From: a virus
Length of the DNA: 64,000 bases
Reading direction: 5' to 3' (one strand)
IMG/VR virus record: IMGVR_UViG_3300025168_000038
Location: 32,001 to 96,000 of that record
Shown here: piece after piece, positions 14,993 through 55,517 of the stretch
How positions within the stretch are numbered: position 1 is the first letter of the stretch
Layout: each line of letters opens with the position of its first letter
Notes under the pieces: generated by a model
What the model saw: the letters and a program-made list of their open reading frames with translations, nothing else
The model's database searches: none
What the model was told of the DNA's origin: nothing
Made by a program: the position numbers and the translations under genes

Positions 14993-15436
14993 TTATTTTT
15001 TACGTCCACTTGATCTGTTACCAGAATAAGCTCTTTTACCTGCAGCTTTTTTAGCTCCTTTACTTTCATCTCTTCTAGACTTCATAGATTGTTTCTTCTT
15101 TCCGTTTCTCATTCCTAAAGACTCATTTAATCTAGAATTGTAACCCTGCTTTTTCTTTTTCTTTTTAACAGCTCCACCTTTTTTCATCATTCCTTGTACA
15201 GGATCTAATACTGAACCACCATTATCTTTAAACATTTCTAAACCACCAGCTGCAGCCATTGTATCCATAGCCATAGCTTGTGGAGTAAGATCTCTCATTC
15301 CATCAATTGATGATGTAAAGCCTCCCATTCCGGTTCCTCCCATATCATATCTTTTCATGTTATTTACTTTTTTCTTTTTTTTCTTTGCTGAAGAGCTTCC
15401 ACCTATTTTGTAAGCATTTCTCATATTGTTTGGCAT
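14993..15436 (-). CDS. Lys/Met/Gly-rich basic protein with repeated xxxxGG motifs (147 aa)
   Basis: Poly-Lys tracts; AYKIGG, RYDMGG, MAAAGG, FKDNGG and MMKKGG. Confidence 0.75.
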   Translation of the reverse strand: MPNNMRNAYKIGGSSSAKKKKKKVNNMKRYDMGGTGMGGFTSSIDGMRDLTPQAMAMDTMAAAGGLEMFKDNGGSVLDPVQGMMKKGGAVKKKKKKQGYNSRLNESLGMRNGKKKQSMKSRRDESKGAKKAAGKRAYSGNRSSGRKK

Positions 15437-37800: not shown

Positions 37801-40800
37801 TTAAATTACTAATAATTAAATCTGTTCTTTCATTAGCACTGTCTTTAGGCTCAGTAAAATTATTTTTATGTGACCATGCCTCTATCATTTCATTAGGGCG
37901 TATTTTAGAATAAGTTTTACCTAAACTATCAAAATTAATTGGTGCTGCTAAAACAAAATTATTTATAAAGTCTTGTTCTGAAATAGGTATTGAGTTCTCT
38001 AGGTTAGTATAATAGTCATTACTAAACTTATTAAAAGGAATAATAAATATACTTTGTTGAGAGCCTTTATCAAATGATGTTTTACCTGTATTAACTACAA
38101 ATACTTCCCCTTGCTTATTAATTATTCTTTCATTCTTACTTATAGATAGCCCATTTATTCCACCAAATCTATATACTCCTCCTGTATCAACCTCTTTTTC
38201 TAATTTTTCAGCAGCTTGAATTGCATCAGCTTTTATACTATATACACCTAAACTATTGGCACCAATAATTTGTCTAAGCTCTTGAGATATCTTGTTACCT
38301 TTCTTATCTAGTATTGTATAAATAGATGTATTTGCTTTATCTCTTTTATTTATAACCTTTTCTTCTACATCAACTATTGCCCCTTCAAAAATAATATTTG
38401 AAGGCTTCTGTCTTACTGTTTGAAAAATAGACAGATTTAAATTTAATTGATCTAGTATATTTAATATATCTGCATTCTCTGCTGCAGGTCCGTTTATAAA
38501 ATCTTGAAAGCCTGTTTCATTTTTTATATCACTCTCTGTTGGAATTAATTCTGCAACCTGACCATTAACCAATACTGGATATCCTTTTGACCATATTTTC
38601 TTAATAGCATCATAGGCTGTTTGTATGTTAATCCCAGCAGCGCTTTCTTTCCATTCTTCTATACTTAATGAATCTCTATTAGGTATAGCCTGATATTGTC
38701 TAAACTGGTCTTCTAATGTTCTATTTAATACAACAGAATTGATTGTTGGTATTACTTCTACATTTTCTATACCAGCATCATCTAAAATCTGATTAACATC
38801 CTTTGCACTCTCATCAGCAACTTCTTCTTGTGACCTCTCTGCTTTTGCAAGTTCTTCTGTTTGTAGATTATAACTATTTATTATTGGATTAATTTTATTA
38901 TTGATAATTATAGCATCTTCCAGTATAGATGGATCTAGTAATCTGCCTGCAAATAAATATGAATTTGACTGGTCTATTGAAGATGTTTCTCCTGTTTCTA
39001 AAAAAACTTGAGTAGCTTCCGGTGTTAAATAAACATCTTCTGCAGCTAAACTATTTAGCATCTGGTTTTGTTTATCTAATACTAGCTGGGCTTTAGTTTG
39101 TTCTATTATTATTTGTTTTTGATTAGCCTCTAATACTTTAAAATATTCTGCAGATCTATTTATTAAGTCTTCCATTTTATTAGGATCTAATAAATAATCT
39201 ATAGTATTGTTAAACAAGAATGCATCTTGAGATAAAGCTGCGTAGTCTACTATTTCATTAATTGCATTATCCACTGCATCAGCATCAACAAACGTTCCTT
39301 TAGAAGCAGCTAATGAATTCAAATAGTTTTCTATTGGGCCCTTTAACTTATTCTTTTTACGCTGATCAAAAAATCCTTTTGCTGTTAGATTATCATTATA
39401 TACTTTATTAATTCTATCTAGATTCTTTTTCCTTCTTTTCTTTTCCTTAAGAGATTTTTTATTTCTCTTAATTGCAATCTCATCTAATCCAGATTCATTA
39501 TTAGCATTTTGTTCTAGTATTAATATCTCTTGTTGTAATCTATCTACTTCTACTTCTAAAGATTCTTTATCTAATAAAGGTGTAACATCATTAGCAGCCA
39601 TATTACCAAACAATGGAGTAGACTCTAATGACTGAGCAATTTTTACTTTTCTATTTAGTGCATCTTTAAATGCATTCTGAGTAAACATATAAAACATTTC
39701 TTGATGTTCATATGCCTTTTTTAATCTTTGCTCATCTCTATATTTTCTTGTTCCAGGCGTAAACATTTCTGGCTTGTATCTAGGTTTAAATATGCTTTTC
39801 TTATTATTAAACATATCACCATACTCAGTAATAAGATCTAATTGTTTTTGTATCTTTGATCTTACTTGTTCTATACTACCATAATCCTTTTTAGGAAATG
39901 CCTCACCTAAAGCTTTATCATCAAGCTGACTAAAATCTACCATCTCTTGTTGATAAAATCCTATTGAGCCTTTTTTATATTTATCATGTAAATTTTTAAA
40001 CTCTAAGAAATTTCTACCATTAAAGTAATCATACTTATCATTCCTTGAAATAGCATCATCCATAGCATTGGATGTTTGTTTCATAGTTGACATCATTAGC
40101 TGATCATTATTTAAGATAGCATCTAAACCATCTACACCTTTTTCAGACATATCTTCTGATTGGCGTATAATATCTGCTATTACTTTTTCCTCTGCTGTTC
40201 TTGCGTTTGCATAATCCGCTCTAGAAGCTTTACTTCTCAAAGCATAGAGTTTAGGAACTTGTTGAAATAAAACATTTTGATAAGGCCCAGCTAAACCACC
40301 CATCAAAAATCCGGATAAAAATGTATTTAATCCTTGTGCTGTAAACTGATCCTGTATACCATCCATTGCAAATGAACCATATAAATTCTTTGTACCTGCA
40401 CCAGGCTCTCTAAGCAAGGCACCATAGTAGCCTTCATTAGTTGCAGCAATAGCTTCTTGTGAAACTTCTTGTAGTCCCTCTGCTATTCCTGCTGCACCGT
40501 ATCTTAACATCATACCTCCAAAAACTCTTGGAGCATTTTTTATTCCACCAGCTGTAAATTGTCTAACAATATTTGTAGGAGTAGGCATACCTAAAAAAGT
40601 TGCACCCTTTTGATAAGTTCCTTTTAAAGCTTTTCCTGTAACAGCATCTACTAGTGGATTAGTTCTAAATACTTTTTCTGATAGATTCTTATATCCTCTT
40701 CTCCAACTTCCAAAGGCACCTCTTAAAACAAACTTGTTTGATAAATATATTATACCAAAGTTTTGCATTTGTGTTCTAAATGCAGCTTGAGCAGCTTTTA

Positions 40801-42034
40801 CTTTTGTATCAGATAGTTGATCTGCTGTAATAGCTTTACCAGGATTTTGTTGTGCTAAATATTTTAAATGATTTTGTTCTACTCTATTACTAACCATACC
40901 AGCTTCTAGTTTAGCTTCAGATAAAGCAATATTAAATTGTCTTATATCTCTATAGAAAGCACCAAAAGCATTACCACTTTTAGTAATATTAAATAAATTT
41001 TGTGCAGCATTACCTGTTGTTTGCCAATTCTTTATAGCATAAGTTAGTTCTGGTGCAACAAATCTTCCAAAAGCTTCTGCACCACCATAATAGAATTGTT
41101 TAGCGTTTTCAGCATTATTAAGTGTTCTAACCAATGCTTCACCAGAACTTGCATATCTTTTTACATCAAATAAATTAGCAATAGCTTTTCCTGTCCTGAC
41201 TAAATTTCTACCTGTGCCTGCCACAAAAGCAGCAAAACCTGCTGGTGCTCCTGCGCCTGTTGATGTTAATGCAGCTGATCCCATTGCTAACACTAACTCT
41301 TCTACTGCTATAGATGCAATAATACCTGCTGTATAACCAAAGCTTAAACCAGTATTAGTTAATAAACCAAAAGGTCCTCCTTTGCTTGTTGAACCTATTC
41401 TCATAGCATCTTCCATAGTATTTGCTGCTTCTAAGTCTGGAGCTGACCAATAACCATCTCCATCAAATGCATCTGCTATAGATCTATAAGAAGAACCAAG
41501 ACCTATAGAAAATTGACTGCCTAATTGATTCCAAGCTCTAGAAAAATCATCATACTTGCTACTATTAGCATTATAAAAAGATTCATTGTTTGAATAAGGG
41601 TTAAAGCCTAACTCACTATAATTAGGACTAGCATAAAATCTATCAAAATTACTATTCTTAATATTACCATAATCTGGTGCAGCAGCCACTAAATTATTTT
41701 GTGATGGTGCGTTTGCTGTTGCTTTCATCTGCTCACCTAAACTAAGATCTGATATTTGAGTCTTAGATGGATTATATCCTATATCTAATAAACCAGGATT
41801 GTTGCTAGAAACATTACCAATTACTTCAGGACCATACTTAAACATATCACGTTGATACCTGTCTACATTTAATAAAGCAGCTGGGTCAGCCATATTTAAA
41901 AAGTCTGGACCATATTGTTCTGTATCCATTAAAGACTGCATTGTCTTATATGGTTTAGCATCATTTACTAAATCAACCTTAGGATTGTTGCCTGTAAGGT
42001 TCTCCTGAAGGGCTTGTGGATCTTGGTTTTCCAT
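28871..42034 (-). CDS. Giant virion RNA polymerase polyprotein (4387 aa), crAss-like
   Basis: Catalytic GADFDID (31481-31495) preceded by VRIPS; zincin HEAFH (35885-35899); N-terminal Gly/Ala hydrophobic segments. Confidence 0.9.
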   Translation of the reverse strand: MENQDPQALQENLTGNNPKVDLVNDAKPYKTMQSLMDTEQYGPDFLNMADPAALLNVDRYQRDMFKYGPEVIGNVSSNNPGLLDIGYNPSKTQISDLSLGEQMKATANAPSQNNLVAAAPDYGNIKNSNFDRFYASPNYSELGFNPYSNNESFYNANSSKYDDFSRAWNQLGSQFSIGLGSSYRSIADAFDGDGYWSAPDLEAANTMEDAMRIGSTSKGGPFGLLTNTGLSFGYTAGIIASIAVEELVLAMGSAALTSTGAGAPAGFAAFVAGTGRNLVRTGKAIANLFDVKRYASSGEALVRTLNNAENAKQFYYGGAEAFGRFVAPELTYAIKNWQTTGNAAQNLFNITKSGNAFGAFYRDIRQFNIALSEAKLEAGMVSNRVEQNHLKYLAQQNPGKAITADQLSDTKVKAAQAAFRTQMQNFGIIYLSNKFVLRGAFGSWRRGYKNLSEKVFRTNPLVDAVTGKALKGTYQKGATFLGMPTPTNIVRQFTAGGIKNAPRVFGGMMLRYGAAGIAEGLQEVSQEAIAATNEGYYGALLREPGAGTKNLYGSFAMDGIQDQFTAQGLNTFLSGFLMGGLAGPYQNVLFQQVPKLYALRSKASRADYANARTAEEKVIADIIRQSEDMSEKGVDGLDAILNNDQLMMSTMKQTSNAMDDAISRNDKYDYFNGRNFLEFKNLHDKYKKGSIGFYQQEMVDFSQLDDKALGEAFPKKDYGSIEQVRSKIQKQLDLITEYGDMFNNKKSIFKPRYKPEMFTPGTRKYRDEQRLKKAYEHQEMFYMFTQNAFKDALNRKVKIAQSLESTPLFGNMAANDVTPLLDKESLEVEVDRLQQEILILEQNANNESGLDEIAIKRNKKSLKEKKRRKKNLDRINKVYNDNLTAKGFFDQRKKNKLKGPIENYLNSLAASKGTFVDADAVDNAINEIVDYAALSQDAFLFNNTIDYLLDPNKMEDLINRSAEYFKVLEANQKQIIIEQTKAQLVLDKQNQMLNSLAAEDVYLTPEATQVFLETGETSSIDQSNSYLFAGRLLDPSILEDAIIINNKINPIINSYNLQTEELAKAERSQEEVADESAKDVNQILDDAGIENVEVIPTINSVVLNRTLEDQFRQYQAIPNRDSLSIEEWKESAAGINIQTAYDAIKKIWSKGYPVLVNGQVAELIPTESDIKNETGFQDFINGPAAENADILNILDQLNLNLSIFQTVRQKPSNIIFEGAIVDVEEKVINKRDKANTSIYTILDKKGNKISQELRQIIGANSLGVYSIKADAIQAAEKLEKEVDTGGVYRFGGINGLSISKNERIINKQGEVFVVNTGKTSFDKGSQQSIFIIPFNKFSNDYYTNLENSIPISEQDFINNFVLAAPINFDSLGKTYSKIRPNEMIEAWSHKNNFTEPKDSANERTDLIISNLTTEELNGLNLFITPVTQSPSKNYVIPADGLKPNPYIKENTNSYNIGIQVIDVNVIDKINNLYDTNPDITRLEESANNVFAYLPSQRFSFFDKDGKAVMPHDFDVEFMKSVIKFDKDLTGVEIDSQSNLSPGVQTLQYIQENFAKAAVLNQAIQKLANQDGRGEAIFGELPDGIRINLFEGYDNYTSPNTFTSLKDLKYSSDGLGNYLIYDISVGGNNSAPKVISNLEGDALDVLREETEAALKRNGLWKQSVEGGTNRYMVVLKQPNGVYSVVTSKPKLQQKVDLDIELLRLINRAQTTVESNLDKDKKPKDINFNEEFNKETLSKIFITSKPGSKRKVFLDVDQYGNIRMRVKDAIANENRTLGGALYKQTGKTQYLYPADLNLGVAEETRKSPQDLIQLLLDKINGDENLGEGTISLKNFTTSIAEDASITDFLVDLETAIDPNQLRKGFRLLTTANPKSIGRELSKGNISVTPLIEESAPENVEVLPDIAEEVEVLEEVSDLNSILTKISILKAQLEDQYGPTNRKRLRQAYKENKELQDLFKKRDELRGANKIVKGSFNSTDVESIDSFSVWASQTLPDYIGIADIATLRSNLITTGTRVGSFVLNINDIAGGLDVSGTIYTGANSPFRYHEAFHGVYRMILTPQEQAKYLRIARKEQRANLRKEGKSLASELQKFRNSADTYTNMSQERLEREYFEEYMADQFELFKTGPKNTKTSSEVKSLFTKILDWIKGVLNQFYKNELTSLFENIDGGKFQSAPIATNEFTTLGSSVEANKLIPYQMVDRNAGIGELYVPSFVANGIISSMAGVLIDRKFNFIPTEEKLKFNQDEELDVIVDEFAETYDVFSNANSQFLEGSKEHDMLKLLTAAFEDFIPQIKQSVTDVLDIIDLQSAQQVERNDEFIDNEGLRTVQQYGKETYLSGGLDNLPAAVRKYIGTVTYIEKDYFGNTTLVNGTPITVPVNANVVYNGMLKSLEGLEDPVEMLQAMYAFSQTNPQTEAVVNQIFENSGINMPESYTEDFTFEQFPEGITNPNFLIKVLNSFTNFRVEWFFTQRDMLGNSIVHSASQRDDSNNQLDSWSEGYSSKLQLWQDDLNIRKDALKALVTLQTELRPKKTTIRNNALNERSRKLSKLLFDNLGISISPGYMSYSRLMARENLTKAQEQLLSFHPDVQPMTLNDIEVFFELIKEGVDLFSPEGAESKLKKLALGNASFDETIGATVFKNSNNDLVNSHQQPTFNLRKTRALNSASERARLLQDDYLSNNFLLNSPAFNALADNNQVKISRISGTKVLRSLSADLDVKSSLTLKSTDYGKYTPAEFLVTNINNYLAFYNSLNRKPLKSVLVKNPVNGTDSRFAISPNLIRVMESSNTGDQTTLPIIKAVEKIQGRDVITDEVLEAFYNFVENEYNRIVRENGPNRTTDVIEGYNTGEFRSKTFANNETLLNIDTRSGLIKEALSEEPAAFEQALRAAKLNKKSFKKQLEANLDSKFNEFDNLIDTLNVRNRIDKKIVRGISRGTTGAVKEAAKSTAAMYNLIDMDPIYNLKQVFFNNYLNVKSLNELYLSDQAKVLKDFTDKSKRAKGNNNSFIPAETYLTDPRLGVMHETNKINLVAFNEPTLMSGLSSNSIQIADAQVYGTVKATRHFQFGIGEMTPALAAALNKIEQGEVLQWEEIGELISQGNMLNSKKYAYFDGETYIKMSYTTLTKELTSMQNSDDMWVAKPGQEKLHNLRVNLEELDKENQTVSIAAPESALKMMKQNLNPISDLNGQPSGFTNNATTIYAKYFGLQQINPSNKKQITLQSQMKTLNTSEQDPRNKDIQQTIINYNNDLKYRSRLKYNAKVKLTFNVEDVRSEIDASKLNKIVSPNLVLFSKYAVNSLQAGQSTSNLIEFFSSDENNQLKYNLDNPYTISKYEQLFLTYFSQGVFQEKVNGTSVALVSSLGKNVYRRVFSIETFNGKVTPDRQEVIRENEFLNGNFTLDNRSLEELNTGDPLPAEGVIIVDRLRYNLKEYKGGEYQGQRYSEAIMPPQSKEVNDLLAYKSKYRRYKNTIPDVVSEMYAVRIPSEDYHSAFNVKVVDFLPNFMGGSAMFSNELIEVSGADFDIDQAYIHMKEFYVEKGEFKAYENNYSSYINYVNKKVNETGNQYSEAIKLYKLQGVIISDSLVDIDQTPAENAGFSKNAVGALKVLGMPITQSEFNQFVKDNKQAPYEAPVSNKLVDYKRQLVSNDYLTSGTYPIAYRPSNLDLLKNVWESVRKLPGFSERTNQAGKDIDTLTGQTVAFTNNKGASIGSVVSPNLYLSLFKEYKIGLGTLKFELDGKEYKSFGGTLNENGMRKQDLMSSLIVAMTDNAKEFLVSKLGLNAHATRMLSNMIQLGVPLETSILLLNQKIIQDIYRQIDNSDGISPSIGDRINDLIERDDKGKIVKGIVPDKDALERGVADNLEVLELQGALQVFAKVITISNFTVKLNSLVSLNNGLGKNIDSISQRVESINDFIKNPYFIKVRNMLSSSYLSGLSEQLSDINVNILPKMFLSQTPGVKRITSELVGRLDTNLYKNSEAVRTKVKKDVLAFVTLSAYQNIDKNNPLSNGILYPGQDNEQGNVWHAVEQLRISDPGNFFLFDFVTTYKPTDKGNRSGLYLAQANTWRKLNRLQKYDLQTSFNKLYNNPDTRQFAKTVINYIMVKDGLQLAPGGLLESISPYVLEDYLSEINSTEKYLRSKEFTDAGGTTSFVENYLLSASNAKLLPRKFNSETDSIAIKRMDTIDRQTGIESTIYQRNDQEKTSVDLIGSPLQFGAGFMFGNRPTLKQMMEKPEVSKSTPEVVKETEDTSKTVPQIFRNQSINLDVTDESVIIDSVNIVDTAELDAIAASIAEATDNITSEELGILEVEELPISENRQELIGQLDMFDPFISHPEITEFWDSNIEDGSFSTEVKNFKRENNINSLEDLLDLYDRNPNSMWGSPQELIDQIKKCNL

Positions 42035-45414: not shown

Positions 45415-48219
45415 TTAACGCCCCATCTTTCCTACTGTCATCCAGTATGGGTATGCTGTACGTTTAAGTTTAGTCATGCCTCCTTTTTTTGCAGTAGGTT
45501 GATTCACATCTGTTCTTACGCTTGGTACATTATATTGCTCAAAAGGATTATCATCATCTTTATTTGCATTCTTCTTACTATTCTCTCCCATAATAAGTTG
45601 TATATAATCTATTTTATTTTTTTCATCTTTTACTCCTTGTTCATCTGCTTTGTTCCATAACCTAAGTACTTCCTCTTCTCTTTTCTCACTTTCAGTTCTT
45701 TGATCTGTTTTTGCATTTGGATTATTAGTAGAATCAGTAAATGTATTTAAACCATATAGTTCAGGTCTAATTTGGAATTCAGGAGATTTGGTTTTATTAA
45801 GGTTAGAAGTATTGGCCATATTAGTTTGCATAGTGTTCCACAACTCATTACTTTTAATAGTATCCCAGTTCTTAAAGTCAGTAAACCTTTGTAAAGCTAA
45901 ATTAGTACCTTCATCTTGTAACTCTCTTTGTTTCATATTAAACTGATTGTTTCTCATGTTTAAATCAGCATTTACTCTTCCAGCTTGATTAATAATGTTA
46001 ATGTTATTTGTATTAGTCTTATTAATAGCATCCTCACTTAAAGCTACAGCTTTACCAAAGTCTGATCCAGCTACTGCACCTCTACCAAAAGCTTTCATAG
46101 CATCTAGCTTAGAATTTAAAGCTGCATTAATATTATTTACTTTACCTGTCCAGTCATCTAAAGCTATATCTAATTGTACTGGTGGTGCTTGTCCTAATAC
46201 TGGTAATATTAAAGGATTATCTAATCTATTTTGTGCTGCTATATTATTAACATCTTGCATCCATGGCATAGGTCTTTCAGGAACAAATTCATCATTTAAT
46301 TTAGGATCTGGAGTATCAGCAGGATCATCTAATGAACCAATTATAGTATTAGCTTGAGGATTAGCAAGATACCTTCTGTCTATATTATATGTATGTAAAC
46401 CTAATACACCATCTATATTAGTTCCCCCTCTATCACCAGCAAATAAATTTCTAGGTTCTAAACCATGTTTTTCAGAAAACTCATTATCTAACCTTTGCAT
46501 ATTTTCTTGAACAGTAGTCCATTGTTTTGTATACGCTGGATTTTTTCTTCCTGCTGCTCTATCTGCTTCATTCAAATATAAAGGTGTATTATAATCAAAA
46601 CCTTCTTCAGGTATAGCATCACCCCATCTTAATTCAAAATCTTCTTGAAACTTTGGGTCAGATAAATCTGCACCTGCGCTCATTTGTCCTGCAGAACTCT
46701 GTTGCTCAGGTCTATTACCTCCAGAAGCTATACCTCTTCTTACTTTAACTTGTGGATAACCCTCTAACGTAGCTATAACTTCATTATCATTATCTGTATA
46801 TATAGGAGTTTCACCTGTTCCAGAAGTAGTTACTGTTACTTGTTGTGATTCTTTAATTTCATCTAATGGATTTGGTTCCTTTTCAACTAATGTAAACTCT
46901 CTTCTTTTTTTAACAGCATCATAATATTCATTTATACTTATAACATTGCCTCTATCTATAGCATCTGCAAACTGTTGATAATTAGGGTGTCCTTCTGGAA
47001 AAGGGTTATCATCCTTACCATATACTTTAACATCTTCTGTTTCATTAACAACTACATTATTACCATTCTCAGTAACCTCTTCCTCTATACTTTCTCTTAT
47101 AGATAAATCTCCTTGAAATCTTTCTTTATTAATTTCAAAATCTAATGGATCATAATCTTTTATATCTATTAAAGCTTTACCATATAAAAGCTTTTCTTCA
47201 TCAGTTAACATTTCAACAAATTTTTGATCAACTTTACCTTGCATATTTATATGCATACCTCCTCTAATTCTACCTTCTATATATTGTTCTCTGCTTACAT
47301 TTTGTCCATTAAGCTTATAATTTGTAGTTTTCTCATTATTACCTTCTTGAGCTTTATCTAATTCAGTACCATACATTGCCATTTGTTCTACTGGTCCTAC
47401 ATTACCTTGTGGATTGCCTTCTTGTGGTTGTTCTTGATCTTGCATCTGAGCCATCATCTCTTGTAGCATAATTACTTGTGCTTGTTGTTCCGGAGGTAAA
47501 CTAGCTATTGCATTTAGCTCTGCTTGTTTTTTAGTAATGTCTTCTACTTGTGCAGTAAATTTAATAGGGTCTATACCCTTTTCAGTTAAATAAGGATATG
47601 CGGCTAAAGGTACACCTTCTTCAAAATTCTTTTTAAGTTCTTGACCAAATGCTAATTTAGACAAGTTACCCATATTCTTTTTAAGCATAAGCTCAGCACT
47701 TGTAGTAGATATATCATCTGCATACTGATCATTAATAGCTGCTAAATATGGATTGAGCTGATACTTTTTAGATATGTTAGCTGGTGTTTTTCTTTTTCCT
47801 GTCTCTATACCAAACTCAGCCATCTCATCTTTATTAAACTTCATTTTGTTTGTATCTGAATAAATAAATGATTGTTCTGGTAAAAACATAGGCACGCCTC
47901 CACCTGTATGTCTTGGTCCATTAATATCATATAAACCAAACTGACCATTACTATTTAAATCAGCCAATACTGTTTCTCCACCTTCTGCTTCAACATTAGC
48001 ATCTTCTCTTGGTACACCTGTTAAACTATATCTAACATCACTATCTAAACTATTATTAAAATTAGTAGATCCATAATACTCTTGAGGAGTTGTAACTAAA
48101 CCATAATCAGCTTGATCTCCTGTAACATACCCACCATCTTTTTTAACTTCAGTTTTTTTAAGTTTTCCATCAACTAATTCAAAACCATCAGGTAATTTAT
48201 TTATCTTTATTTTTGCCAT
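45415..48219 (-). CDS. Virion cargo protein (934 aa)
   Basis: NVEAEGGETV...GPRHTGGGVP...FIYSD domain, IDGVLGLHT (PG-binding-like), Gln/Asn coiled coils and xxxxGG motifs. Confidence 0.7.
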   Translation of the reverse strand: MAKIKINKLPDGFELVDGKLKKTEVKKDGGYVTGDQADYGLVTTPQEYYGSTNFNNSLDSDVRYSLTGVPREDANVEAEGGETVLADLNSNGQFGLYDINGPRHTGGGVPMFLPEQSFIYSDTNKMKFNKDEMAEFGIETGKRKTPANISKKYQLNPYLAAINDQYADDISTTSAELMLKKNMGNLSKLAFGQELKKNFEEGVPLAAYPYLTEKGIDPIKFTAQVEDITKKQAELNAIASLPPEQQAQVIMLQEMMAQMQDQEQPQEGNPQGNVGPVEQMAMYGTELDKAQEGNNEKTTNYKLNGQNVSREQYIEGRIRGGMHINMQGKVDQKFVEMLTDEEKLLYGKALIDIKDYDPLDFEINKERFQGDLSIRESIEEEVTENGNNVVVNETEDVKVYGKDDNPFPEGHPNYQQFADAIDRGNVISINEYYDAVKKRREFTLVEKEPNPLDEIKESQQVTVTTSGTGETPIYTDNDNEVIATLEGYPQVKVRRGIASGGNRPEQQSSAGQMSAGADLSDPKFQEDFELRWGDAIPEEGFDYNTPLYLNEADRAAGRKNPAYTKQWTTVQENMQRLDNEFSEKHGLEPRNLFAGDRGGTNIDGVLGLHTYNIDRRYLANPQANTIIGSLDDPADTPDPKLNDEFVPERPMPWMQDVNNIAAQNRLDNPLILPVLGQAPPVQLDIALDDWTGKVNNINAALNSKLDAMKAFGRGAVAGSDFGKAVALSEDAINKTNTNNINIINQAGRVNADLNMRNNQFNMKQRELQDEGTNLALQRFTDFKNWDTIKSNELWNTMQTNMANTSNLNKTKSPEFQIRPELYGLNTFTDSTNNPNAKTDQRTESEKREEEVLRLWNKADEQGVKDEKNKIDYIQLIMGENSKKNANKDDDNPFEQYNVPSVRTDVNQPTAKKGGMTKLKRTAYPYWMTVGKMGR

Positions 48220-48221
48220 AA

Positions 48222-50747
48222 TTATAAAATTTCTATATCAGCTCCTGCTGCTATTAATTGTATTAGTAAGTCCTGATCTACATCCATTATATCTCCACCC
48301 ATTTGATTTTTTGGTATGGTCATAAATGATACACCACTCATGTTAAAAGGATCATTAGGTATAATATCAAAAATATTATTGTAATCTACATTACCATCAA
48401 ATCCGGCATCATACATTTTATTATTAAGTGCACGTCTTCTACCTGCAGGATTTGGGGAATAAGACCCACTACTAATAATAGTGTCATTATCACTATTGAA
48501 ACCATGATTTTTTATCATATTTTCAATAATACTTTTTGTTTCTTTCTTGCTAAAATTACCACCTGCATTATTAAATGCTTTTTTATACTCTTTATTACCA
48601 TCTTCTGCTTTAGCCATTTCTCTTTTAATAACTCTATCTCTGTTTGCTAAGTATGCTGCCTCACCACCTTCTTTTGCTTTATCTTGTTCAGCTATTGCTG
48701 CTTTGATAACTCTATCTCTATTAGCTAAATAGCTTTCTTCACCGCCACTAGCCATATTGCTAAGTATATTATGCTGTGCTTCTGGTGGTAAAGCTTTAAA
48801 TCCATCATTGTTCACTCCTCCTCCTTTTTTACTAAACTGAGTTGTCATAAAAGGATTAAACGTAGCTTCATCTAAACCTACTACTCTGTCCTTTGTACTT
48901 CTTAACATGCCTGTATTTGTTTTGTAGTTACCTTTTGAACCAGGAGCATCAGTTACAACACTTGCCCAATTGTCTGCCATAAACATATCTTGCCTGTCTT
49001 CCTTGGCTTTTTCTTGATTTATTCTATTATAAATATTATCATTAGCAAAACTAGCAGCATCTACACCTACTTTTGATAAACTTGTTCCTATTCTAAAAAA
49101 TGGATTGTCACCTATTTCAGTTAACATTCCAGCTAAGCTATTTGTCCTTTCTGATTCAGGCATATTTATTTTGCTATATACATCAGCTGCTGTTTGTACA
49201 TTATTTACAGCTCCTTCTGTTGACGCATCTGCAATAACTGGATCTACTTCTTCCATTCCTTCTGCATTAGAAGTGGTGTAGTTAGCCATATCAAAAGGAG
49301 TTCCGTCAGAAAGAAATTCTAAAACTTCACTTTCTTCTTCTGTAAAAGGACCTCCGCCCCCTTCTTGTAATTTTGGATATGTTTTATTATAAGATTCTAA
49401 ATATTGATCATATAATTTTTGATTAAAATCACTACCCATCATTTTATTATTTTTGTCTAAACCAATAGATTGAAAATATGATTCTTGATCCATCAACTCT
49501 GGAACTATACCTGATGCTTCAGAAATATTATTATCATAATCAGATTTTAATTTTCTTTGTTTTTCTTCTTCTTCAGCTAATGTTAAAGCTTTGTAATCTT
49601 CTATATTCTTAAGATTTTCATCTGATAAATCATATGTTGTTTTTTTACCATAGTATAAAGGACTAGCAGTACTAGCATAATCTACTTTATCTTTTAATCC
49701 GGCAAAAGCACCTTTTTTTAAATTATTCTCACCAACCTCTTTACTAAATAACTCTTGGTTTATATCACTAGCTAAACCTAAACCTTCTAATAGTATATTA
49801 CCTTCAGGGTTTATATTTTGAAAAAAGTCTCCCATGTTATAACTATTATTAGCCACAGGTTTAGAATACTGCGTTGGATTATCTATAAACATTCCAATTT
49901 CATCTCCTGTTGCTTTACTACCATACCACTCCATAAAACTTCTTGGCTCACCACCATAATCTCTAAACCTTGAGTCTAAAGTATATTTTCTGTTAGGAGG
50001 ATTATAAGAGCCTTCTCTTTGTCTTACACCTTCTGTATAATCCATTCCTCCTCCATTTCCAGCAAGATGGATATAACCCTTTTCACCTAATTCAAGATGT
50101 TGGTCATGTGTCATAGCCATTACACCATCATCTCCTTTATACATCATGTGTGGTTTAAACTCACCACCCTCTTCTTTTTTCCAACCAGCTGCATTCTTTG
50201 CAAAATTAGCCATCTTAACTACAGACGTAGGGTATGCATCAGTATTGTCCATAACTTTATTATATGCTTCTGAAACACTCATACCACGTGCTTTAGCCCA
50301 TCTAGTAAACTTACCTCTATTCTCTGGTTCAATTTCTATTCCTGATTTAGCAAAACCAGGTATTGTATCTTGTTTAGGTTTACTGCTTTCTAATGCTTCA
50401 TTTCTAGCTAAAAGCTGAGGACTAGAATTAACTTCTTCTGGACTAGATGGCCCAGGAGGTTGTGCTTTTACACTTACTTGTTGAAACAAAGTCATTATAT
50501 CTTCTTGTTGCATACCACCCATCATAAGTGCTTGTGCAATAACTTGTTGATCAACTTGTTGTTGTGAAAGTTCTAAGACTATATCAACTATATCCTTACC
50601 TTGATTTACTGAAGAAGATATTATTTCTGTAACTTGTTGAATCATAGGATCCACTACAGGCTGCTGATTACTCATAGCTGGTTGACTAGGAATCATTGCA
50701 CCGCCTTGTTGTTTTACACTTTTTTTGTTTAATTTCACTTTGCTCAT
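48222..50747 (-). CDS. Modular virion cargo protein (841 aa) with about 11 xxxxG(G) junction motifs
   Basis: Short modules such as IEIEPENRGKFT...ANFAKNAAGW and FKPHMMY are separated by the motifs. Confidence 0.7.
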   Translation of the reverse strand: MSKVKLNKKSVKQQGGAMIPSQPAMSNQQPVVDPMIQQVTEIISSSVNQGKDIVDIVLELSQQQVDQQVIAQALMMGGMQQEDIMTLFQQVSVKAQPPGPSSPEEVNSSPQLLARNEALESSKPKQDTIPGFAKSGIEIEPENRGKFTRWAKARGMSVSEAYNKVMDNTDAYPTSVVKMANFAKNAAGWKKEEGGEFKPHMMYKGDDGVMAMTHDQHLELGEKGYIHLAGNGGGMDYTEGVRQREGSYNPPNRKYTLDSRFRDYGGEPRSFMEWYGSKATGDEIGMFIDNPTQYSKPVANNSYNMGDFFQNINPEGNILLEGLGLASDINQELFSKEVGENNLKKGAFAGLKDKVDYASTASPLYYGKKTTYDLSDENLKNIEDYKALTLAEEEEKQRKLKSDYDNNISEASGIVPELMDQESYFQSIGLDKNNKMMGSDFNQKLYDQYLESYNKTYPKLQEGGGGPFTEEESEVLEFLSDGTPFDMANYTTSNAEGMEEVDPVIADASTEGAVNNVQTAADVYSKINMPESERTNSLAGMLTEIGDNPFFRIGTSLSKVGVDAASFANDNIYNRINQEKAKEDRQDMFMADNWASVVTDAPGSKGNYKTNTGMLRSTKDRVVGLDEATFNPFMTTQFSKKGGGVNNDGFKALPPEAQHNILSNMASGGEESYLANRDRVIKAAIAEQDKAKEGGEAAYLANRDRVIKREMAKAEDGNKEYKKAFNNAGGNFSKKETKSIIENMIKNHGFNSDNDTIISSGSYSPNPAGRRRALNNKMYDAGFDGNVDYNNIFDIIPNDPFNMSGVSFMTIPKNQMGGDIMDVDQDLLIQLIAAGADIEIL
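48596..48760 (-). repeat. Tandem duplicated module GGE..YLANRDRVIK
   Basis: MASGGEESYLANRDRVIKAAIAEQD / KAKEGGEAAYLANRDRVIKREMA / KAEDG; also visible at DNA level (ataactctatctct x2). Confidence 0.85.
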
Positions 50748-50757
50748 ATTATATTAT

Positions 50758-50768
50758 TAATATACAAA
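50758..50768 (-). promoter_or_regulatory. Late-promoter-like TTTGTATATTA
   Basis: Same core as the 17993/18068 repeats, 10 nt before ATG 50747. Confidence 0.55.
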
Positions 50769-50810
50769 TAATTAAGGAGATTCACTAATATTTAAGGTTT
50801 AACAATCATC

Positions 50811-53800
50811 CTAAAGATGCGTCATTATATAGTTTGGTACACTCATACCCATTCTCCTTGCATCATTTAAATGTATTCTATTTAGTTTATCATATATATT
50901 ATTGGCTTCCTGACTTTTTACTTTTCCGTTAATATAGTTCTTATAAGTATTTAACATCTCTGACTCACCACCTTTTTTATATGGTAGTAAATCTTCTAAA
51001 CTAAATTGTAAAAAACCTGTTTTACCTAATTCCTTTTTTGCTGCTTCCATGCTATTTGCAAAACTTTTTCTATTGCCTTTTTTAGAAACATTCTTATGCC
51101 CTTTTAACCATACATCTGCCATTGATAATTTACCATCTGCATAGTCTTTTAATACAGCTGGAGATTCAATTAAATTAGCAAAGAATAATGTATACTGATC
51201 TTTTGCACTTAAATCTAGTGCACTTTCTGCATTAAGTATATTTTCATTAAGTGTATATTTTATTCCTGTTTTTTTACCAGCTGCTTCAGCAACATTTTTA
51301 TATCTTGTTTTTGCAGTATCAAAAGATTCTGGTTCAAACTGAAACATTCCTCTTCCTAAGCCGTCTTTTTCTCCATCTTTGGTAATCTGTCTAGCTAGAG
51401 GGTTCATTCTTTGCTGGGGACCAGATTCATGAAAAGCTATATTATCAGCTAAATCTGTCCATGTTTTTTCATTACCCCCTCTACTCTCAACCATATAATC
51501 TATAATATTAGTAAGACCTAATACTTGATTATTTTTTTTATTTTGTTCATCTTCACTTACAATAATTTGAGATCTAGAAGGTATAAAACCACCATCTTGT
51601 TCTTGTGATAGTGCTGTACTAGCTCCAACAACAGGAATAGCAGCAGGTAATTTATTTAAAGCTCTAGAAAGAATCTCTCTGTTTTTTGCTGTTTTCTCAT
51701 ATAAATCTAATACTCTTGTGTTACTTAAAAAACCTGAGTTCTTTCCACCACGATCCCACCCATAATCATAAAAACCTCTAGGTTTATTAGCAAAACTAAC
51801 TTCAGCTTGTATAAGTTTATTTGGTGTTATCTTATCATAAATATTTTTTATAATACCTCTATCTAACATTGATTGTCTTAGTTCAGCTAAATATGATGTA
51901 GGTTCCTGACCACTACTTCCTTCTTTAAAATATTCCCATTGAGCTTTTCCTGTTTTACTTAAATTTGCAGATGGGGTAAGTTTTCTAGCATAATCATCCA
52001 AAGGCATTTTTCTTCCTGCTTGTAATAAGTGGTTTAGTTCATGTACTTCCACAGGTGCATTATTTGAATATTTCATACCTGTAGTCACTTTGCCTGGAAT
52101 AGATTCTTTGCCTAAACGTTTTAGATTAATTACCATATTTGGGTCTGCAAGATATTTATTATATAATTCATCTGGAAATGGCATTTCCACTCCTGTTACA
52201 GGATCTAAATATTTTTTAGGAACAAAATCACCTGTCTCATATACTGCTTTTCTTGGTGCGTTTTGAAACCAAGCGTTAAAATATAATCCATCATTATTCT
52301 TAAATAATTCTCTAGCTATATTATGATTAACATGTTTAGGATCACCTATTGCATCTTTCCACATTGCTAATGCATTATCATTAATAGTATTTCCTTTAGC
52401 TGATACTAACTCGTTATATCTTGCTAATGCATTTCTTTCTGCAAAAACTTTATTATATGGTTGTCCAACTGATTGAAGATATTTAGCTTCTGCTTCAACT
52501 AATCTTTCAAAACCTTCTGAGCCAGGTTTTAAATCATTTAATCTTTTTTGTATGGTAGCTCTAAAACTATCTGCACCTGCAGCTAACTGTTGTAAAGGCT
52601 TTTGTAAATTTGAACCTTCTGGCATAATATCTGCACCACCTCTACCTATGTGAGGCGGCCTTACACCTTTAACTGGTGTAATATCATCTAAATTTCTTGG
52701 TGTATTACCTGAATATTTTTTTACTTGATCTTTAATAAGACTAGGTGCTTTAGGGTTTATAAGTTTATTAATCATCTTAGGAAGCTCACCAATTTTAGCT
52801 CTAGACAACCAAGCAGGTATAACAGGTATAGCACCTAAAGCATTTAATGAACCTGATAAAATTTCACCTTCTTCAAAATCTCTTTTAGAATTTTCAGCAT
52901 ACTGTGCCCATGCAAATGGGTTAAAAACATCAACAAGCATATCTAAATTATTTCTTTCAGGATTAGAAACATTTAATCCTTTAGGAATAGGTTCATTACG
53001 TGCACTATAACCAAATGCTGTAAAAGGGCTAGCTAATTTATCAGCAAAATTTTTGTAATCAAAAATCTCTTTTTGAAATAAATTCTCATCACCTTGTCTA
53101 AACTCATATCCTTGTTGAGCCATTACAGGTTGATTAGGATTATTTTCTTGTACTAACTCATTAAAGTATATTTTCATTTTTCTTTCTACTTCAGGTCTTA
53201 AATCATTTATATCATTTTCAAGTCCTTTTCTATAATCAATAATTGATTTTTGATCAGCTATATTTTGTATATTATCAACACCTTCAACAAACTCTAATGC
53301 TTTATTATATTTTTTACCTCTTTTTGTTTTACTATTTTTAAGTAAATATTTAGCATTTTGATAAGGTGATTTATCTCCATAAGGACCATCCTCAAATGAA
53401 TATCTTTTATTATCCTGTAACCATGAATCATAAAAAGAATCTTGTTCATCAAAAGTACTAACATTATATCCTTCATCATATACATCTCTTAGTTTACGCT
53501 TATTATCATTTTTATCAAAGTTCTTTAAATCATTCATCATACCTTTAAGATTGCTAAACTCCATACTTTGAAAATGCAATTGTGCCTCACTATTATTTGG
53601 TACTAATTTTTCATTAGTATTCAACATTTTTTCAAACTGACTTGAGCCAAATTTTTCTTTATTATAATCCCAAATTCCTTCATCTAATAATCTACCTTCT
53701 GTTTCTGCTTTAGCTGAGCTTATTTCTGCAGGCATACCAGCATGCATATTAAAATCTTTAAAGTTCTCTTTACCAAATAAATCTTCATACACTTTTAATA

Positions 53801-55517
53801 AACTTCCCTCAGCATTATAATGTCCCATATTAGTACGGTATTTTTGTTTACCATCTACTGTTACTCTATTAGTTGGATCATCAATCATATCATCAAATAA
53901 AGGACTGGTGTTTGTATTATAACTATGAGCCAATTCATGACGTAATAAACCTTTTAAAGGATCTCCATAATTAGTTCTTATATTTCCAGAGTTGTCGTAT
54001 TGTAAACCAATAGAATAAGGGTAATTATAAGCATCTTTAGATATTATATCTGATGCTAATTTTCTATCATCTCCATATTGAAATGGTCTAGTCTCAAATG
54101 AAGCAATTGCGTTATCTCTTTTAATTTGAGTACTGTCTCCTGAACCATCACCATAATATGGACTATATGTAGTTGCTTCATTCTCTGATCCCGTATATGG
54201 ATAAACTATAGCATTATCTGATCCTGCATTTGTAAAATCTATTTGATTTTTAACATTCTTTTTAGCCACTTCAATATCTATATCTTTTCCAGTAACATGC
54301 TTATAGTTTGCTACATATCTATTTAAAAAAGTTTCACTATTTAATTTATTAATTAGTTCTTCTTTTTCTTCTTTAATAGGATAAGATCCAAGATTACCCA
54401 TTTGTCCTTTAGGTAATGTTTTAACTTTACCATTCTTAGTTCTAGCATATCTATTGTTTTCATTTTCCATGCTAGGAATAAGTGTGCCTGAGTATGATTT
54501 ACCTTTCCAATTCCAACTTACTGAGCCACCTCCTTTTTGAGCCTTTGGAATATATTCTCCTGAATCTTTATTTTCTTCTACATATATTCTATCATATATT
54601 TCAAAAGGTTTTACTATATTCTCTGTATCAACTCCTCTAAAATCATATTTATCATAAATAGATAAATATTTTTCCTTTCTTTCATTATCATATCCCCATT
54701 GAAGTTGAAACCCTTGTAGTGGGTCTCTTCCATAAAAATCATCTGCATCCATAAAGTCATCTTTAATAAACCTAGATAATCCTTCTACAAATTTTTTCTT
54801 TCCTTCAGTTTTATTATCATCTCCTTTGTCATAATCACCCATGTGTTTTATTAATTTATTCCAATCTATAACATCTGGATTTAATTTTACATATTTATCA
54901 TTAGGATTCTTTGCATCAGAAGGCATATATTCTGAAGGAATAAAATACTTTGCATCATTTGGAAGACCTAATGCCTTTGCCCATGCTTCCTCATCTATAC
55001 TATAACTACCATCCTTATCTAATACAGGTGGTTTACCTTCTTTACCAAAATAATCTCTCCATCCTGCACCAGCTAAACCAGATATACTTGGATACCCTTC
55101 AGGCCTAATTTGCTCAAAAAGCAGTCGTTTCATATTTGCATCATTCACATCATTTGAATACATATTATTATACAAACTATTAGCTGCATTTACCATCAAA
55201 GCATTGTCACTACGACTTCTATCTACAACCCTTTCTCCAACATTACCTTCCTGAGCCATAGGTATTTCAAATACTTGATCTCCTGGAAACTCATAATTCA
55301 TACCTGGTTGCATCATTTGTGAGTTGCCTAAGTTATCTGTACCTAGTACAGGAAACTCCACATCTTCCATAGTAATACTTCCTGACTCAATAATGTTAAA
55401 AGGATTATCTACATCAGGACTATTAAACTTATACCCCTCTATAGATAAATATTCTGATATATCAGTAATATATTCATTTGGTCCTCCTGGTAATCCTATG
55501 CTTTTTTTATTTGCCAT
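50811..55517 (-). CDS. Modular virion protein (1568 aa) with two HExxH domains and a lysozyme-like domain
   Basis: LLRHELAH..E, EVHELNH..E and IAFHESG...GRGMFQF; six xxxxG(G) junctions. Confidence 0.72.
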   Translation of the reverse strand: MANKKSIGLPGGPNEYITDISEYLSIEGYKFNSPDVDNPFNIIESGSITMEDVEFPVLGTDNLGNSQMMQPGMNYEFPGDQVFEIPMAQEGNVGERVVDRSRSDNALMVNAANSLYNNMYSNDVNDANMKRLLFEQIRPEGYPSISGLAGAGWRDYFGKEGKPPVLDKDGSYSIDEEAWAKALGLPNDAKYFIPSEYMPSDAKNPNDKYVKLNPDVIDWNKLIKHMGDYDKGDDNKTEGKKKFVEGLSRFIKDDFMDADDFYGRDPLQGFQLQWGYDNERKEKYLSIYDKYDFRGVDTENIVKPFEIYDRIYVEENKDSGEYIPKAQKGGGSVSWNWKGKSYSGTLIPSMENENNRYARTKNGKVKTLPKGQMGNLGSYPIKEEKEELINKLNSETFLNRYVANYKHVTGKDIDIEVAKKNVKNQIDFTNAGSDNAIVYPYTGSENEATTYSPYYGDGSGDSTQIKRDNAIASFETRPFQYGDDRKLASDIISKDAYNYPYSIGLQYDNSGNIRTNYGDPLKGLLRHELAHSYNTNTSPLFDDMIDDPTNRVTVDGKQKYRTNMGHYNAEGSLLKVYEDLFGKENFKDFNMHAGMPAEISSAKAETEGRLLDEGIWDYNKEKFGSSQFEKMLNTNEKLVPNNSEAQLHFQSMEFSNLKGMMNDLKNFDKNDNKRKLRDVYDEGYNVSTFDEQDSFYDSWLQDNKRYSFEDGPYGDKSPYQNAKYLLKNSKTKRGKKYNKALEFVEGVDNIQNIADQKSIIDYRKGLENDINDLRPEVERKMKIYFNELVQENNPNQPVMAQQGYEFRQGDENLFQKEIFDYKNFADKLASPFTAFGYSARNEPIPKGLNVSNPERNNLDMLVDVFNPFAWAQYAENSKRDFEEGEILSGSLNALGAIPVIPAWLSRAKIGELPKMINKLINPKAPSLIKDQVKKYSGNTPRNLDDITPVKGVRPPHIGRGGADIMPEGSNLQKPLQQLAAGADSFRATIQKRLNDLKPGSEGFERLVEAEAKYLQSVGQPYNKVFAERNALARYNELVSAKGNTINDNALAMWKDAIGDPKHVNHNIARELFKNNDGLYFNAWFQNAPRKAVYETGDFVPKKYLDPVTGVEMPFPDELYNKYLADPNMVINLKRLGKESIPGKVTTGMKYSNNAPVEVHELNHLLQAGRKMPLDDYARKLTPSANLSKTGKAQWEYFKEGSSGQEPTSYLAELRQSMLDRGIIKNIYDKITPNKLIQAEVSFANKPRGFYDYGWDRGGKNSGFLSNTRVLDLYEKTAKNREILSRALNKLPAAIPVVGASTALSQEQDGGFIPSRSQIIVSEDEQNKKNNQVLGLTNIIDYMVESRGGNEKTWTDLADNIAFHESGPQQRMNPLARQITKDGEKDGLGRGMFQFEPESFDTAKTRYKNVAEAAGKKTGIKYTLNENILNAESALDLSAKDQYTLFFANLIESPAVLKDYADGKLSMADVWLKGHKNVSKKGNRKSFANSMEAAKKELGKTGFLQFSLEDLLPYKKGGESEMLNTYKNYINGKVKSQEANNIYDKLNRIHLNDARRMGMSVPNYIMTHL

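Follow-up and report, generated by a model that had tools for sequence, protein, structure and literature searches.

Crassviruses rank among the most abundant gut phages and are also common in the sea; the protein that they load and eject amounts to about 5 MDa. In crAss001, the muzzle gene gp44 is followed by the genes of the cargo proteins C1 (gp45) and C2 (gp46) and, from gp47 on, by those of the RNA-polymerase proteins (PMC10172136). In the virion structure, residues 425-552 of gp45 are modelled as one continuous, compact, portal-bound domain and residues 214-245 lie in the tail barrel (PMC10172136), and a review reads C1 as a single chain stretched through the portal. C1 is the nearest characterised protein to those considered here, which are encoded in a 64,000-nucleotide stretch (the window) covering bases 32001-96000 of the 108-kb IMG/VR virus record IMGVR_UViG_3300025168_000038 (estimated completeness 94%). 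Three adjacent minus-strand genes of the window encode P0001 (1568 amino acids, aa; window 50811..55517), P0002 (841 aa; 48222..50747) and P0003 (934 aa; 45415..48219), which are punctuated by a short, repeated peptide, referred to below as the junction tag.

By its sequence, the source phage is an uncultured marine virus distantly related to Crassvirales. Its portal falls in PHROG 6547 and its terminase in PHROG 6681, and tblastn with the portal ranks Leptolyngbya phage Lbo-JY46 best (33% identity), followed by the Cellulophaga phages phi4:1 and phi17:2, and then by Flavobacterium phages and gut crAss-like phages. The minus-strand gene order is: a 2219-aa protein, P0001, P0002, P0003, and proteins of 1103, 4387 and 1929 aa. 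The 2219-aa protein, encoded upstream of P0001, is muzzle-like and is a virion structural protein according to PHROG 37948/15100, and P0001-P0003 occupy the position of C1, between this muzzle-like gene and the virion RNA-polymerase genes. They are most likely virion-packed, injected ejection (cargo) proteins, a packaging deduced from gene order and one local homology.

A junction tag selected at the protein level

The first-pass annotation of the window had described about 21 copies of a [K/M]-x-x-x-G(G) motif in these three cargo genes, and all 21 peptides are present where it had placed them, either explicitly or by implication. Enrichment is mild for the loose pattern and strong for a tighter core. 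[K/M]xxxG is found 44 times in P0001-P0003 for 30.6 +/- 5.0 expected (1.4-fold), a count reached by 11 of 2000 shuffles preserving the composition of each protein, and GG dipeptides overall are 1.5-fold enriched. P[KM]xQxG is found 5 times (0.07 expected), [KM]xQxG 9 times (1.34 expected) and [KQ][KQEDM]GG 10 times (0.84 expected), and none of the 2000 shuffles reaches any of these three counts. Elsewhere in the phage proteome (31,284 residues), [KM]xQxG occurs 4 times, and the tag is, as had been claimed, absent from the 4387-aa, 1929-aa and replication proteins.

These core patterns were defined post hoc, after inspection of the data, an objection that is answered by the independent recurrence of the core in relatives. 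In three syntenic relatives (L002-L004), the families of P0001, P0002 and P0003 (families A, B and C, respectively) contain 23 [KM]xQxG for about 4.9 expected, as compared with 1 for about 2.1 expected in the flanking 1103-like, muzzle-like and RNA-polymerase proteins. The copies of the relatives, such as EYPMAQGG, ELPKAQQG, DLPKAQWG, DIPKAQMG or EIPMAQEGGE, are often unaligned with those of the window.

When a logo is built from 126 non-redundant [KM]xQxG instances of relatives, positions outside the anchors are 3- to 8-fold enriched: before K/M, Glu at -3 (3.9-fold), Leu/Ile at -2 and Pro at -1 (7.8-fold), and after it, Ala at +1 (7.3-fold), Gly at +5 (3.5-fold), Glu at +6 (4.7-fold) and Thr/Ile at +7. 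The resulting consensus is E-[LI]-P-[KM]-A-Q-x-G-G-E-[TI], where x is often D or E, and the tag is often followed by a β-strand-like stretch (GGETV.V, GGDIKIK, GGEFKPH). Degenerate forms of the aromatic/basic-x-G-G type (W-K-K-x-E-GG, F-S-K-K-GG, Y-K-K-GG, F-R-x-x-GG) are also found, as are composite tags, such as MAMYG-TELD-KAQEG in P0003. The codons encoding the tag vary among synonyms, so that selection acts on the peptide and not on the DNA; conservation at the DNA level was therefore rejected. We conclude that the tag is real, restricted to these protein families and selected at the protein level. As a separate observation on codon use, all three K-x-GG-E junctions of the window (50163-50180, 48663-48680 and 50967-50981) are coded GGT GGT GAG, GAG being the minor Glu codon (24%), in what is too small a sample for interpretation.

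Module exchange at the tags

The tags had initially been placed at apparent domain borders, and this is borne out in P0001, where separate inter-tag intervals are occupied by each HExxH motif (at residues 527 and 1159), by the lysozyme-like module (about 1355-1449) and by a 39-aa module (331-369). When P0002 is aligned with the three syntenic relatives, entire units are gained or lost exactly between tags, and the same units are arranged in other orders in the homologues P0077, P0093 and P0066. In the window itself, a YLANRDRVIK unit is tandemly duplicated between MASGG, KAKEGG and KAEDG.

The prediction that the gain, loss and swapping of modules in homologues break at the motif is confirmed quantitatively. 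In 29 non-redundant homologues, well-flanked indels of at least 20 aa have 89 of their 176 borders within 4 residues of GG, for 18.8 expected. After merging into 58 events, each represented by its first alignment variant, 45 of the 116 borders are at GG (11.3 expected; maximum of 25 in 2000 random placements), and both borders are at GG in 14 events (0.8 expected); border counts are incompletely independent, and the effect is large. Among the 33 homologues of family A, local-alignment blocks end near [KM]xQxG 75 times, for 18.4 expected. Each family has conserved ends and a variable middle. In family A, the constant parts are about 90 residues at the N-terminus, up to E-[ILV]-P-M-A-Q-x-G, and about 50 at the C-terminus, after YKKGGE; in family B, they are residues 1 to ~195 and the C-terminal helix that follows the last tag; in family C, they are about 280 N-terminal residues, which are present in 1421 representative clusters.

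These sequence comparisons support the view that P0001-P0003 are mosaics of swappable modules, the borders of which are marked by the motif. Mosaics of swappable modules in cargo position are the part of the polyprotein reading of the first-pass annotation that stands, its cleavage part being considered below. The tag explains the evolution of cargo proteins by cassette exchange and, as it delimits modules in giant open reading frames (ORFs) that are otherwise unannotatable, aids in their annotation.

Structure models of P0002 and of P0001 residues 371-1568 were obtained by AlphaFold2 with homologue alignments, with mean predicted local distance difference test (pLDDT) scores of 46.8 and 47.1, which makes them usable only for telling order from disorder. 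The P0002 model contains small folded islands (31-95, 141-185 and 197-228) between long stretches below a pLDDT of 50. All 14 tags covered (11 in P0002 and 3 in P0001) are in segments below 50, as would be expected of linkers; the evidence is weak, since such segments make up about 60% of each protein.

Uncut joint, cleavage site or remnant

The reading that we favour, at roughly even odds, is that the tags serve ejection proteins of the bead-on-a-string kind as joints that stay uncut or as handles for docking, perhaps half of these odds falling to a true docking role; docking in the capsid by the tag had been offered as an alternative in the first-pass annotation, and it forms part of this reading. 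Each protein is composed of conserved end pieces and of a variable middle of small, independently folding modules, with a junction peptide at every module border and at a cap near the N- and C-termini, and the tag would remain uncut in the virion. The Gly-Gly would break secondary structure and act as a hinge, allowing each bead to fold or unfold alone, and the chain would be kept in an extended state between capsid and tail barrel and would pass, one bead after another, through a channel less than 50 Å wide. The conserved E-L-P-K/M-A-Q could be a short handle for a repeated partner, such as the lumen of the portal or that of the tail barrel, or a loading factor, and the conserved N- and C-terminal pieces might anchor or address the protein. 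Modules could be spliced in without disturbing their neighbours, because each would bring its own tag. Should a partner read the tag, foreign payloads might be loaded by means of it. The junction peptide is a concrete feature to mutate and to seek in cryo-electron microscopy maps and virion mass spectra.

Our preference for an uncut joint rather than a cleavage site comes from one site in a distant relative and from a published residue range. P0002 residues 132-221 align with crAss001 gp45 residues 369-461 (pairwise E 2e-5), over one module and two junctions only, and the tags fall on each other in this alignment, FAKSG on IAKDGG and KKEEGG-E on NTQGG-D. The gp45 range 425-552 starts at A-F-G-G and passes through NTQGG-D, and the two gp45 pieces that are resolved, 214-245 and 425-552, fall between GG junctions at 209/263 and 427/562. 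Since NTQGG-D is inside the modelled range, at least that junction would be intact in mature crAss001 virions. That a phage maturation protease cuts at the motif, as had been proposed, is so far not supported, the aligned gp45 junction being inside this continuously modelled range. Neither the crAss001 structure paper (PMC10172136) nor the review mentions cleavage or a protease.

Several points weigh against the uncut-joint reading. The crAss001 argument concerns one junction, in a distant relative and with a different tag flavour (aromatic-x-x-GG), and it uses the published residue range, not coordinates. Virion packaging of P0001-P0003 is suggested by gene order and one local homology, and the disorder of the chain between beads is predicted from poor AlphaFold models (mean pLDDT 47), which support it weakly. 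In addition, a pure hinge would need neither E-L-P-K/M-A-Q nor a Glu after Gly-Gly, a specificity that would fit a protease site equally well, and the binding partner of the handle is only putative.

The same specificity leads to the other serious candidate, which we consider less probable and hold only as a tentative alternative: the tags would be cutting sites, in polyproteins loaded into the procapsid via their conserved ends and then cut by a phage peptidase after the Gly-Gly or the following Glu, freeing the modules. Conservation is indeed position-specific on both sides of the Gly-Gly. Prohead proteases of the phiKZ type cut according to the rule [S/A/G]-x-E, which G-G-E fits, T4/phiKZ-type sites having the general form [L/I or S/A/G]-x-E; Glu follows G-G or G-x at 43 of 126 non-redundant [KM]xQxG sites and at 106 of 423 GG sites, so that it is frequent but, being present in only some 25-33% of the non-redundant sites, not the rule. 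Tags are found 10-30 residues from N-termini, like removable targeting peptides, and modules are also stand-alone small proteins in other phages; against a removable leader, some homologues begin merely with M-x-x-G-G. The location of gp45 segments on both sides of the portal in crAss001 would also be explained by separate fragments, although the junction homologous to KKEEGG-E is inside a chain modelled as continuous in these virions. Cleavage of fused crAss-like virion proteins, in which a zincin-like domain adjoins the RNA polymerase, has been proposed by Drobysheva et al., and polyvalent proteins have been predicted to be processed by embedded zincins (Iyer et al., 2017; PMC5512222). Both proposals count in favour of cleavage, whereas the largest fused cargo protein here, the 4387-aa protein, which the literature would designate as the likely polyprotein, is without tags. 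Cleavage remains a live rival because of the HExxH modules of the cargo block (P0001 527 and 1159; 4387-aa protein 2046), to which the putative metallopeptidase DUF2201_N, encoded elsewhere in the genome, can be added; for the HExxH stretches of P0001, nevertheless, no match to a peptidase family is obtained, even when E values as high as 10 are allowed. Prohead, CE-clan and C39 peptidases are, moreover, undetected in the scanned ORFs. A less demanding explanation, which we regard as improbable, is that the tags are functionless, being either remnants of linkers that were copied together with modules or microhomologies in the DNA that promote recombination, their similarity reflecting common descent. 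Each module seems to bear its own C-terminal tag, so that insertions regenerate the junction, and the three GGE sites of the window share GGT GGT GAG. However, tag codons otherwise vary freely, the consensus is kept beside unrelated modules and across the marine clade, the cultured cyanophage and gut crAss001, and both termini, at which swapping is not observed, are likewise capped by tags. Finally, a by-product of the composition of Lys-, Gln- and Gly-rich low-complexity proteins, to which we give almost no credence, would agree with the small excess of the loose pattern (1.4-fold) and of GG dipeptides (1.5-fold), but the core is 7- to 70-fold above composition-keeping shuffles, flanking positions are enriched and positions are conserved in alignments; this candidate is refuted by the shuffle enrichment, the logo and the indel-border tests. 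The rest of the odds is given to no particular reading.

The protease searches bear on the cleavage part of the polyprotein reading, which is so far unsupported, no dedicated protease having been found in the ORFs scanned. A genome search with Pfam and PHROG, on the structural block and 32 further ORFs, detects no CE-clan (adenain/Ulp1), C39 or prohead (S77, S78, U35, assemblin) protease; these scans did not extend to ORFs shorter than about 100 aa or to several ORFs of 200-550 aa in the replication region. In particular, no gp21/assemblin-like protease is found among the portal, terminase and neighbouring ORFs, nor elsewhere in the ORFs scanned. Adenain cuts according to the rule (M/L/I)-x-G-G, the scissile bond following the second Gly and preceding any residue. 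The analogy that had been drawn with Gly-Gly cutting in adenovirus and African swine fever virus (ASFV) fails on this register, since K/M is out of phase with (M/L/I)xGG: the logo places it five to six residues before the end of the Gly-Gly, with A-Q-x between, and the adenain register was rejected. A double-glycine leader was also rejected, as NCBIfam at E up to 1 yields no leader family and no C39 domain is found; MSKVKLNKKSVKQQGG resembles such leaders by eye only.

The only Pfam-recognised peptidase-like gene found in the phage lies outside the window, on the plus strand of the replication module (genome 27059-28222), and encodes the DUF2201_N putative metallopeptidase (HELLH) with a VWA-like domain. 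It is adjacent to a gene with a P-loop-like motif, GESGIGKT (both within genome 27059-29498, L041:11059-13498, plus strand).

One bolder possibility, which we hold to be rather doubtful, is that the tag could be a virion 'address and coupling' code, read by a dedicated partner, either a receptor site repeated around the lumen of the portal or tail or a cargo-embedded zincin cutting after packaging or injection. If so, any tag-flanked module would be loaded, stored and delivered to the host, in a general and evolvable payload-delivery system, and the code would offer an engineering handle on what the most abundant order of gut and marine phages injects.

Module content, neighbouring genes and known systems

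All features of P0001-P0003 given below are on the minus strand, at window coordinates. P0001 has a conserved N-terminal end of ~90 aa and a conserved C-terminal end of ~50 aa, and its variable middle contains two HExxH modules and a lysozyme-like module. Its first tag, MAQEG (residues 87-91, 55245..55259, context EIPMAQEG), is kept at this place in nearly all family-A homologues. KAQKGG (325-330, 54528..54545, context YIPKAQKGGG) and KGQMG (370-374, 54396..54410, context TLPKGQMG) flank the 39-aa module SVSWNWKGKSYSG... (WNWKGKSYSG unit, 331-369, 54411..54527), which recurs in the family-B homologue P0066 and directly after the N-terminal tag in P0127, P0131 and P0134. The first HExxH, HELAH (527-531, 53925..53939; HE[LY]AH in homologues), has a putative peptidase role; it is followed by the tag MAQQG (799-803, 53109..53123, context PVMAQQG), which is kept in homologues, and by the second HExxH, HELNH (1159-1163, 52029..52043; HE[IL]NH in homologues). 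The tag QEQDGG (1305-1310, 51588..51605) precedes the lysozyme/SLT-like module (about 1355-1449, 51171..51455), and YKKGG (1513-1517, 50967..50981) is followed by E and the conserved C-terminal end.

The lysozyme-like module of P0001 has weak matches of its own (PHROG 3108, E 8e-4; Phage_lysozyme2, E 0.022), and family-A homologues contain clear SLT, Phage_lysozyme2, LysM and PG_binding_1 domains and, once, ART-PolyVal. Its homologues therefore connect family A with ejection proteins that breach peptidoglycan and also with the theme of 'polyvalent proteins'. In the Pfam search of the HExxH regions at E up to 10 mentioned above, MPTase-PolyVal is not among the matches either. The protein atlas gives, below threshold, LPD23 (scores 0.82-0.84) and an M26-like zincin as leads for P0001; Foldseek of the P0001 model against the PDB gives nothing below E 0.25, and searching PDB sequences with the profiles of families A and C gives low-complexity noise only.

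P0002 is mostly predicted to be disordered, and at least 593 homologues are found in marine metagenomes. VKQQGG (11-16, 50700..50717) caps its N-terminus and is kept in relatives. FAKSG (132-136, 50340..50354; MAKSG/LAKSG in relatives) and KKEEGG (50163-50180), which aligns with NTQGG of gp45, delimit a ~60-aa helical module (136-195, 50163..50342) common to gut crAss-like phages and crAss001 gp45. In the window, KKEEGG is followed by a mobile EFKPHMMY...GYxH module (196-233, 50049..50162), the end of which is the tag LAGNGG (50049-50066); L002-L004 lack the module at this place, and L003 and L004 have it near the C-terminus. FRDYGG (261-266, 49950..49967) closes a ~33-aa MDYTEG...DSRF module that is mobile among homologues. 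Further on come KLQEGG (459-464, 49356..49373, context YPKLQEGGGG), FSKKGG (638-643, 48819..48836) and the tags MASGG (665-669), KAKEGG (690-695) and KAEDG (713-717), which together (48597..48755) flank the ~25-aa YLANRDRVIK tandem duplication. The last tag, KNQMGG (813-818, 48294..48311, context IPKNQMGGD), is followed by 23 C-terminal aa (...LIAAGADIEIL, 48225..48293), which are better conserved than any other part of family B and may be a helix for anchoring or packaging. Many P0002 modules are only 25-60 residues long.

The ~35-aa, His/Met-rich EFKPHMMY...GY.H module is widespread in unrelated-looking marine phage contigs (L005-L038, IMG/VR), where it is often a stand-alone protein of 45-150 aa with Lys-rich tails, sometimes with K-x-GG-K tags alongside; that it binds metal is a guess. 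Small proteins of this kind are resembled by a 147-aa, Lys-rich, protamine-like protein of the window (14993-15436, minus strand), which has poly-Lys runs and GG motifs (YDMGGTGMGG, MMKKGGA) and no family match.

In P0003, the ~280 N-terminal aa are widespread. VKKDGG (25-30, 48130..48147) caps the N-terminus, its GG being kept and some homologues starting just ahead of it. The composite tag MAMYG-TELD-KAQEG (280-293, 47341..47382) is kept in relatives, for example as MARYGTEIPMAQEGGE, and TAKKGG (909-914, 45478..45495) precedes a conserved basic C-terminal tail. P0003 and gp45 are not significantly similar in pairwise alignment, and hhalign of the P0003 N-terminal family against gp45 gives a probability of 0.06, with the top alignment lying, by eye, in the portal-bound domain. 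P0002 and P0003 have no recognisable enzyme domain. Pfam, PHROG and NCBIfam searches of P0001-P0003 and of their pieces yield essentially nothing (no Pfam-A family at E up to 0.01), and in megablast and tblastn searches against cultured phages only the 60-aa module of P0002 has matches (gut crAss-like phages), P0001 and P0003 having none.

As regards the neighbouring genes, the 4387-aa protein (window 28871-42034, minus strand) is apparently a virion RNA polymerase fused with partner proteins, as suggested by its position and by a single DFDID at residue 3514, DFDxD being an RNA-polymerase motif. It also contains HEAFH at residue 2046, within a region (2007-2419) that is weakly similar to a gene of the gut phage cr118_1 with the annotation helicase/exonuclease V, and a PHROG scan of the protein gives no match. 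The similarity of the 1103-aa protein to crAss001 gp46 is below significance. Amid the virion gene block, a 407-aa protein (L039:2493-3716, minus strand; genome 96493-97716) matches PHROG 704, 'DNA repair exonuclease' (E 1e-41). Three large Gly-rich proteins (window 7171-10842, 10873-14088 and 15855-17477, minus strand) have similar N-terminal ~20 residues (M..L.DVL.L.K...) and look like alternative tail fibres or spikes sharing an attachment adaptor. No major capsid protein is recognised anywhere in the record.

The ejection proteins of podoviruses (T7 gp14-16, P22 gp7/16/20) are stored inside the head and leave it ahead of the DNA, and T7 gp16 has a peptidoglycan-cutting domain. The internal proteins of T4 and phiKZ are cargo that a short peptide targets and that the prohead protease subsequently cleaves after Glu. 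P0001-P0003 have no sequence similarity to any of these proteins, no gp21-like protease is found in the scanned ORFs, and we know of no repeated junction tag in the T7, P22, T4 or phiKZ proteins. The substrates of the adenovirus protease and of ASFV pS273R, and the C39 double-glycine leaders, likewise have a Gly-Gly preceded by a conserved long aliphatic residue; here, however, K/M is 5-6 residues before the end of the Gly-Gly, not at P4, and no CE-clan or C39 peptidase is found in the scanned ORFs.

Polyvalent proteins are likewise large, multi-module proteins, thought to be codelivered with the DNA and extensively shuffled, with embedded HExxH modules (PMC5512222); P0001 has two HExxH stretches and the weak lysozyme-like match. 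No polyvalent-protein domain is detected in P0001, however, and many modules here are 25-60 aa long and are not enzymes. In the main text of the polyvalent-protein paper (PMC5512222), the word 'linker' is absent and no conserved junction peptide is seen.

In Leptolyngbya phage Lbo-JY46, a cultured cyanophage and the one whose portal is nearest, the syntenic block (PP438436.1 77867-82844; L043) encodes proteins of 484, 674 and 495 aa that bear tags such as GLPKAQIG and FQQGG. One tag-bearing N-terminus is MKIRIIGLPKAQIGMEE, a 484-aa protein begins with MKIRIIGLPKAQIG, and a 674-aa protein ends, after FQQGG, with a P0002-like C-terminal helix.

Like P0001-P0003, crAss001 gp45 sits between the muzzle and virion RNA-polymerase genes, and it contains a series of x-x-G-G junctions (SAYGG, FAEGGG, KAFGG, AKDGG, NAFGG, TQGG, FAYGG and KAKGG), a motif that the crAss001 paper (PMC10172136) does not mention. 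Unlike those of the window, these tags are mostly aromatic-x-x-GG, without the LPKAQ box, and the C1-like material is distributed here over three much larger genes with enzyme-like modules. Modular ejection proteins and polyvalent proteins are known, whereas literature searches brought up no description of the junction tag.

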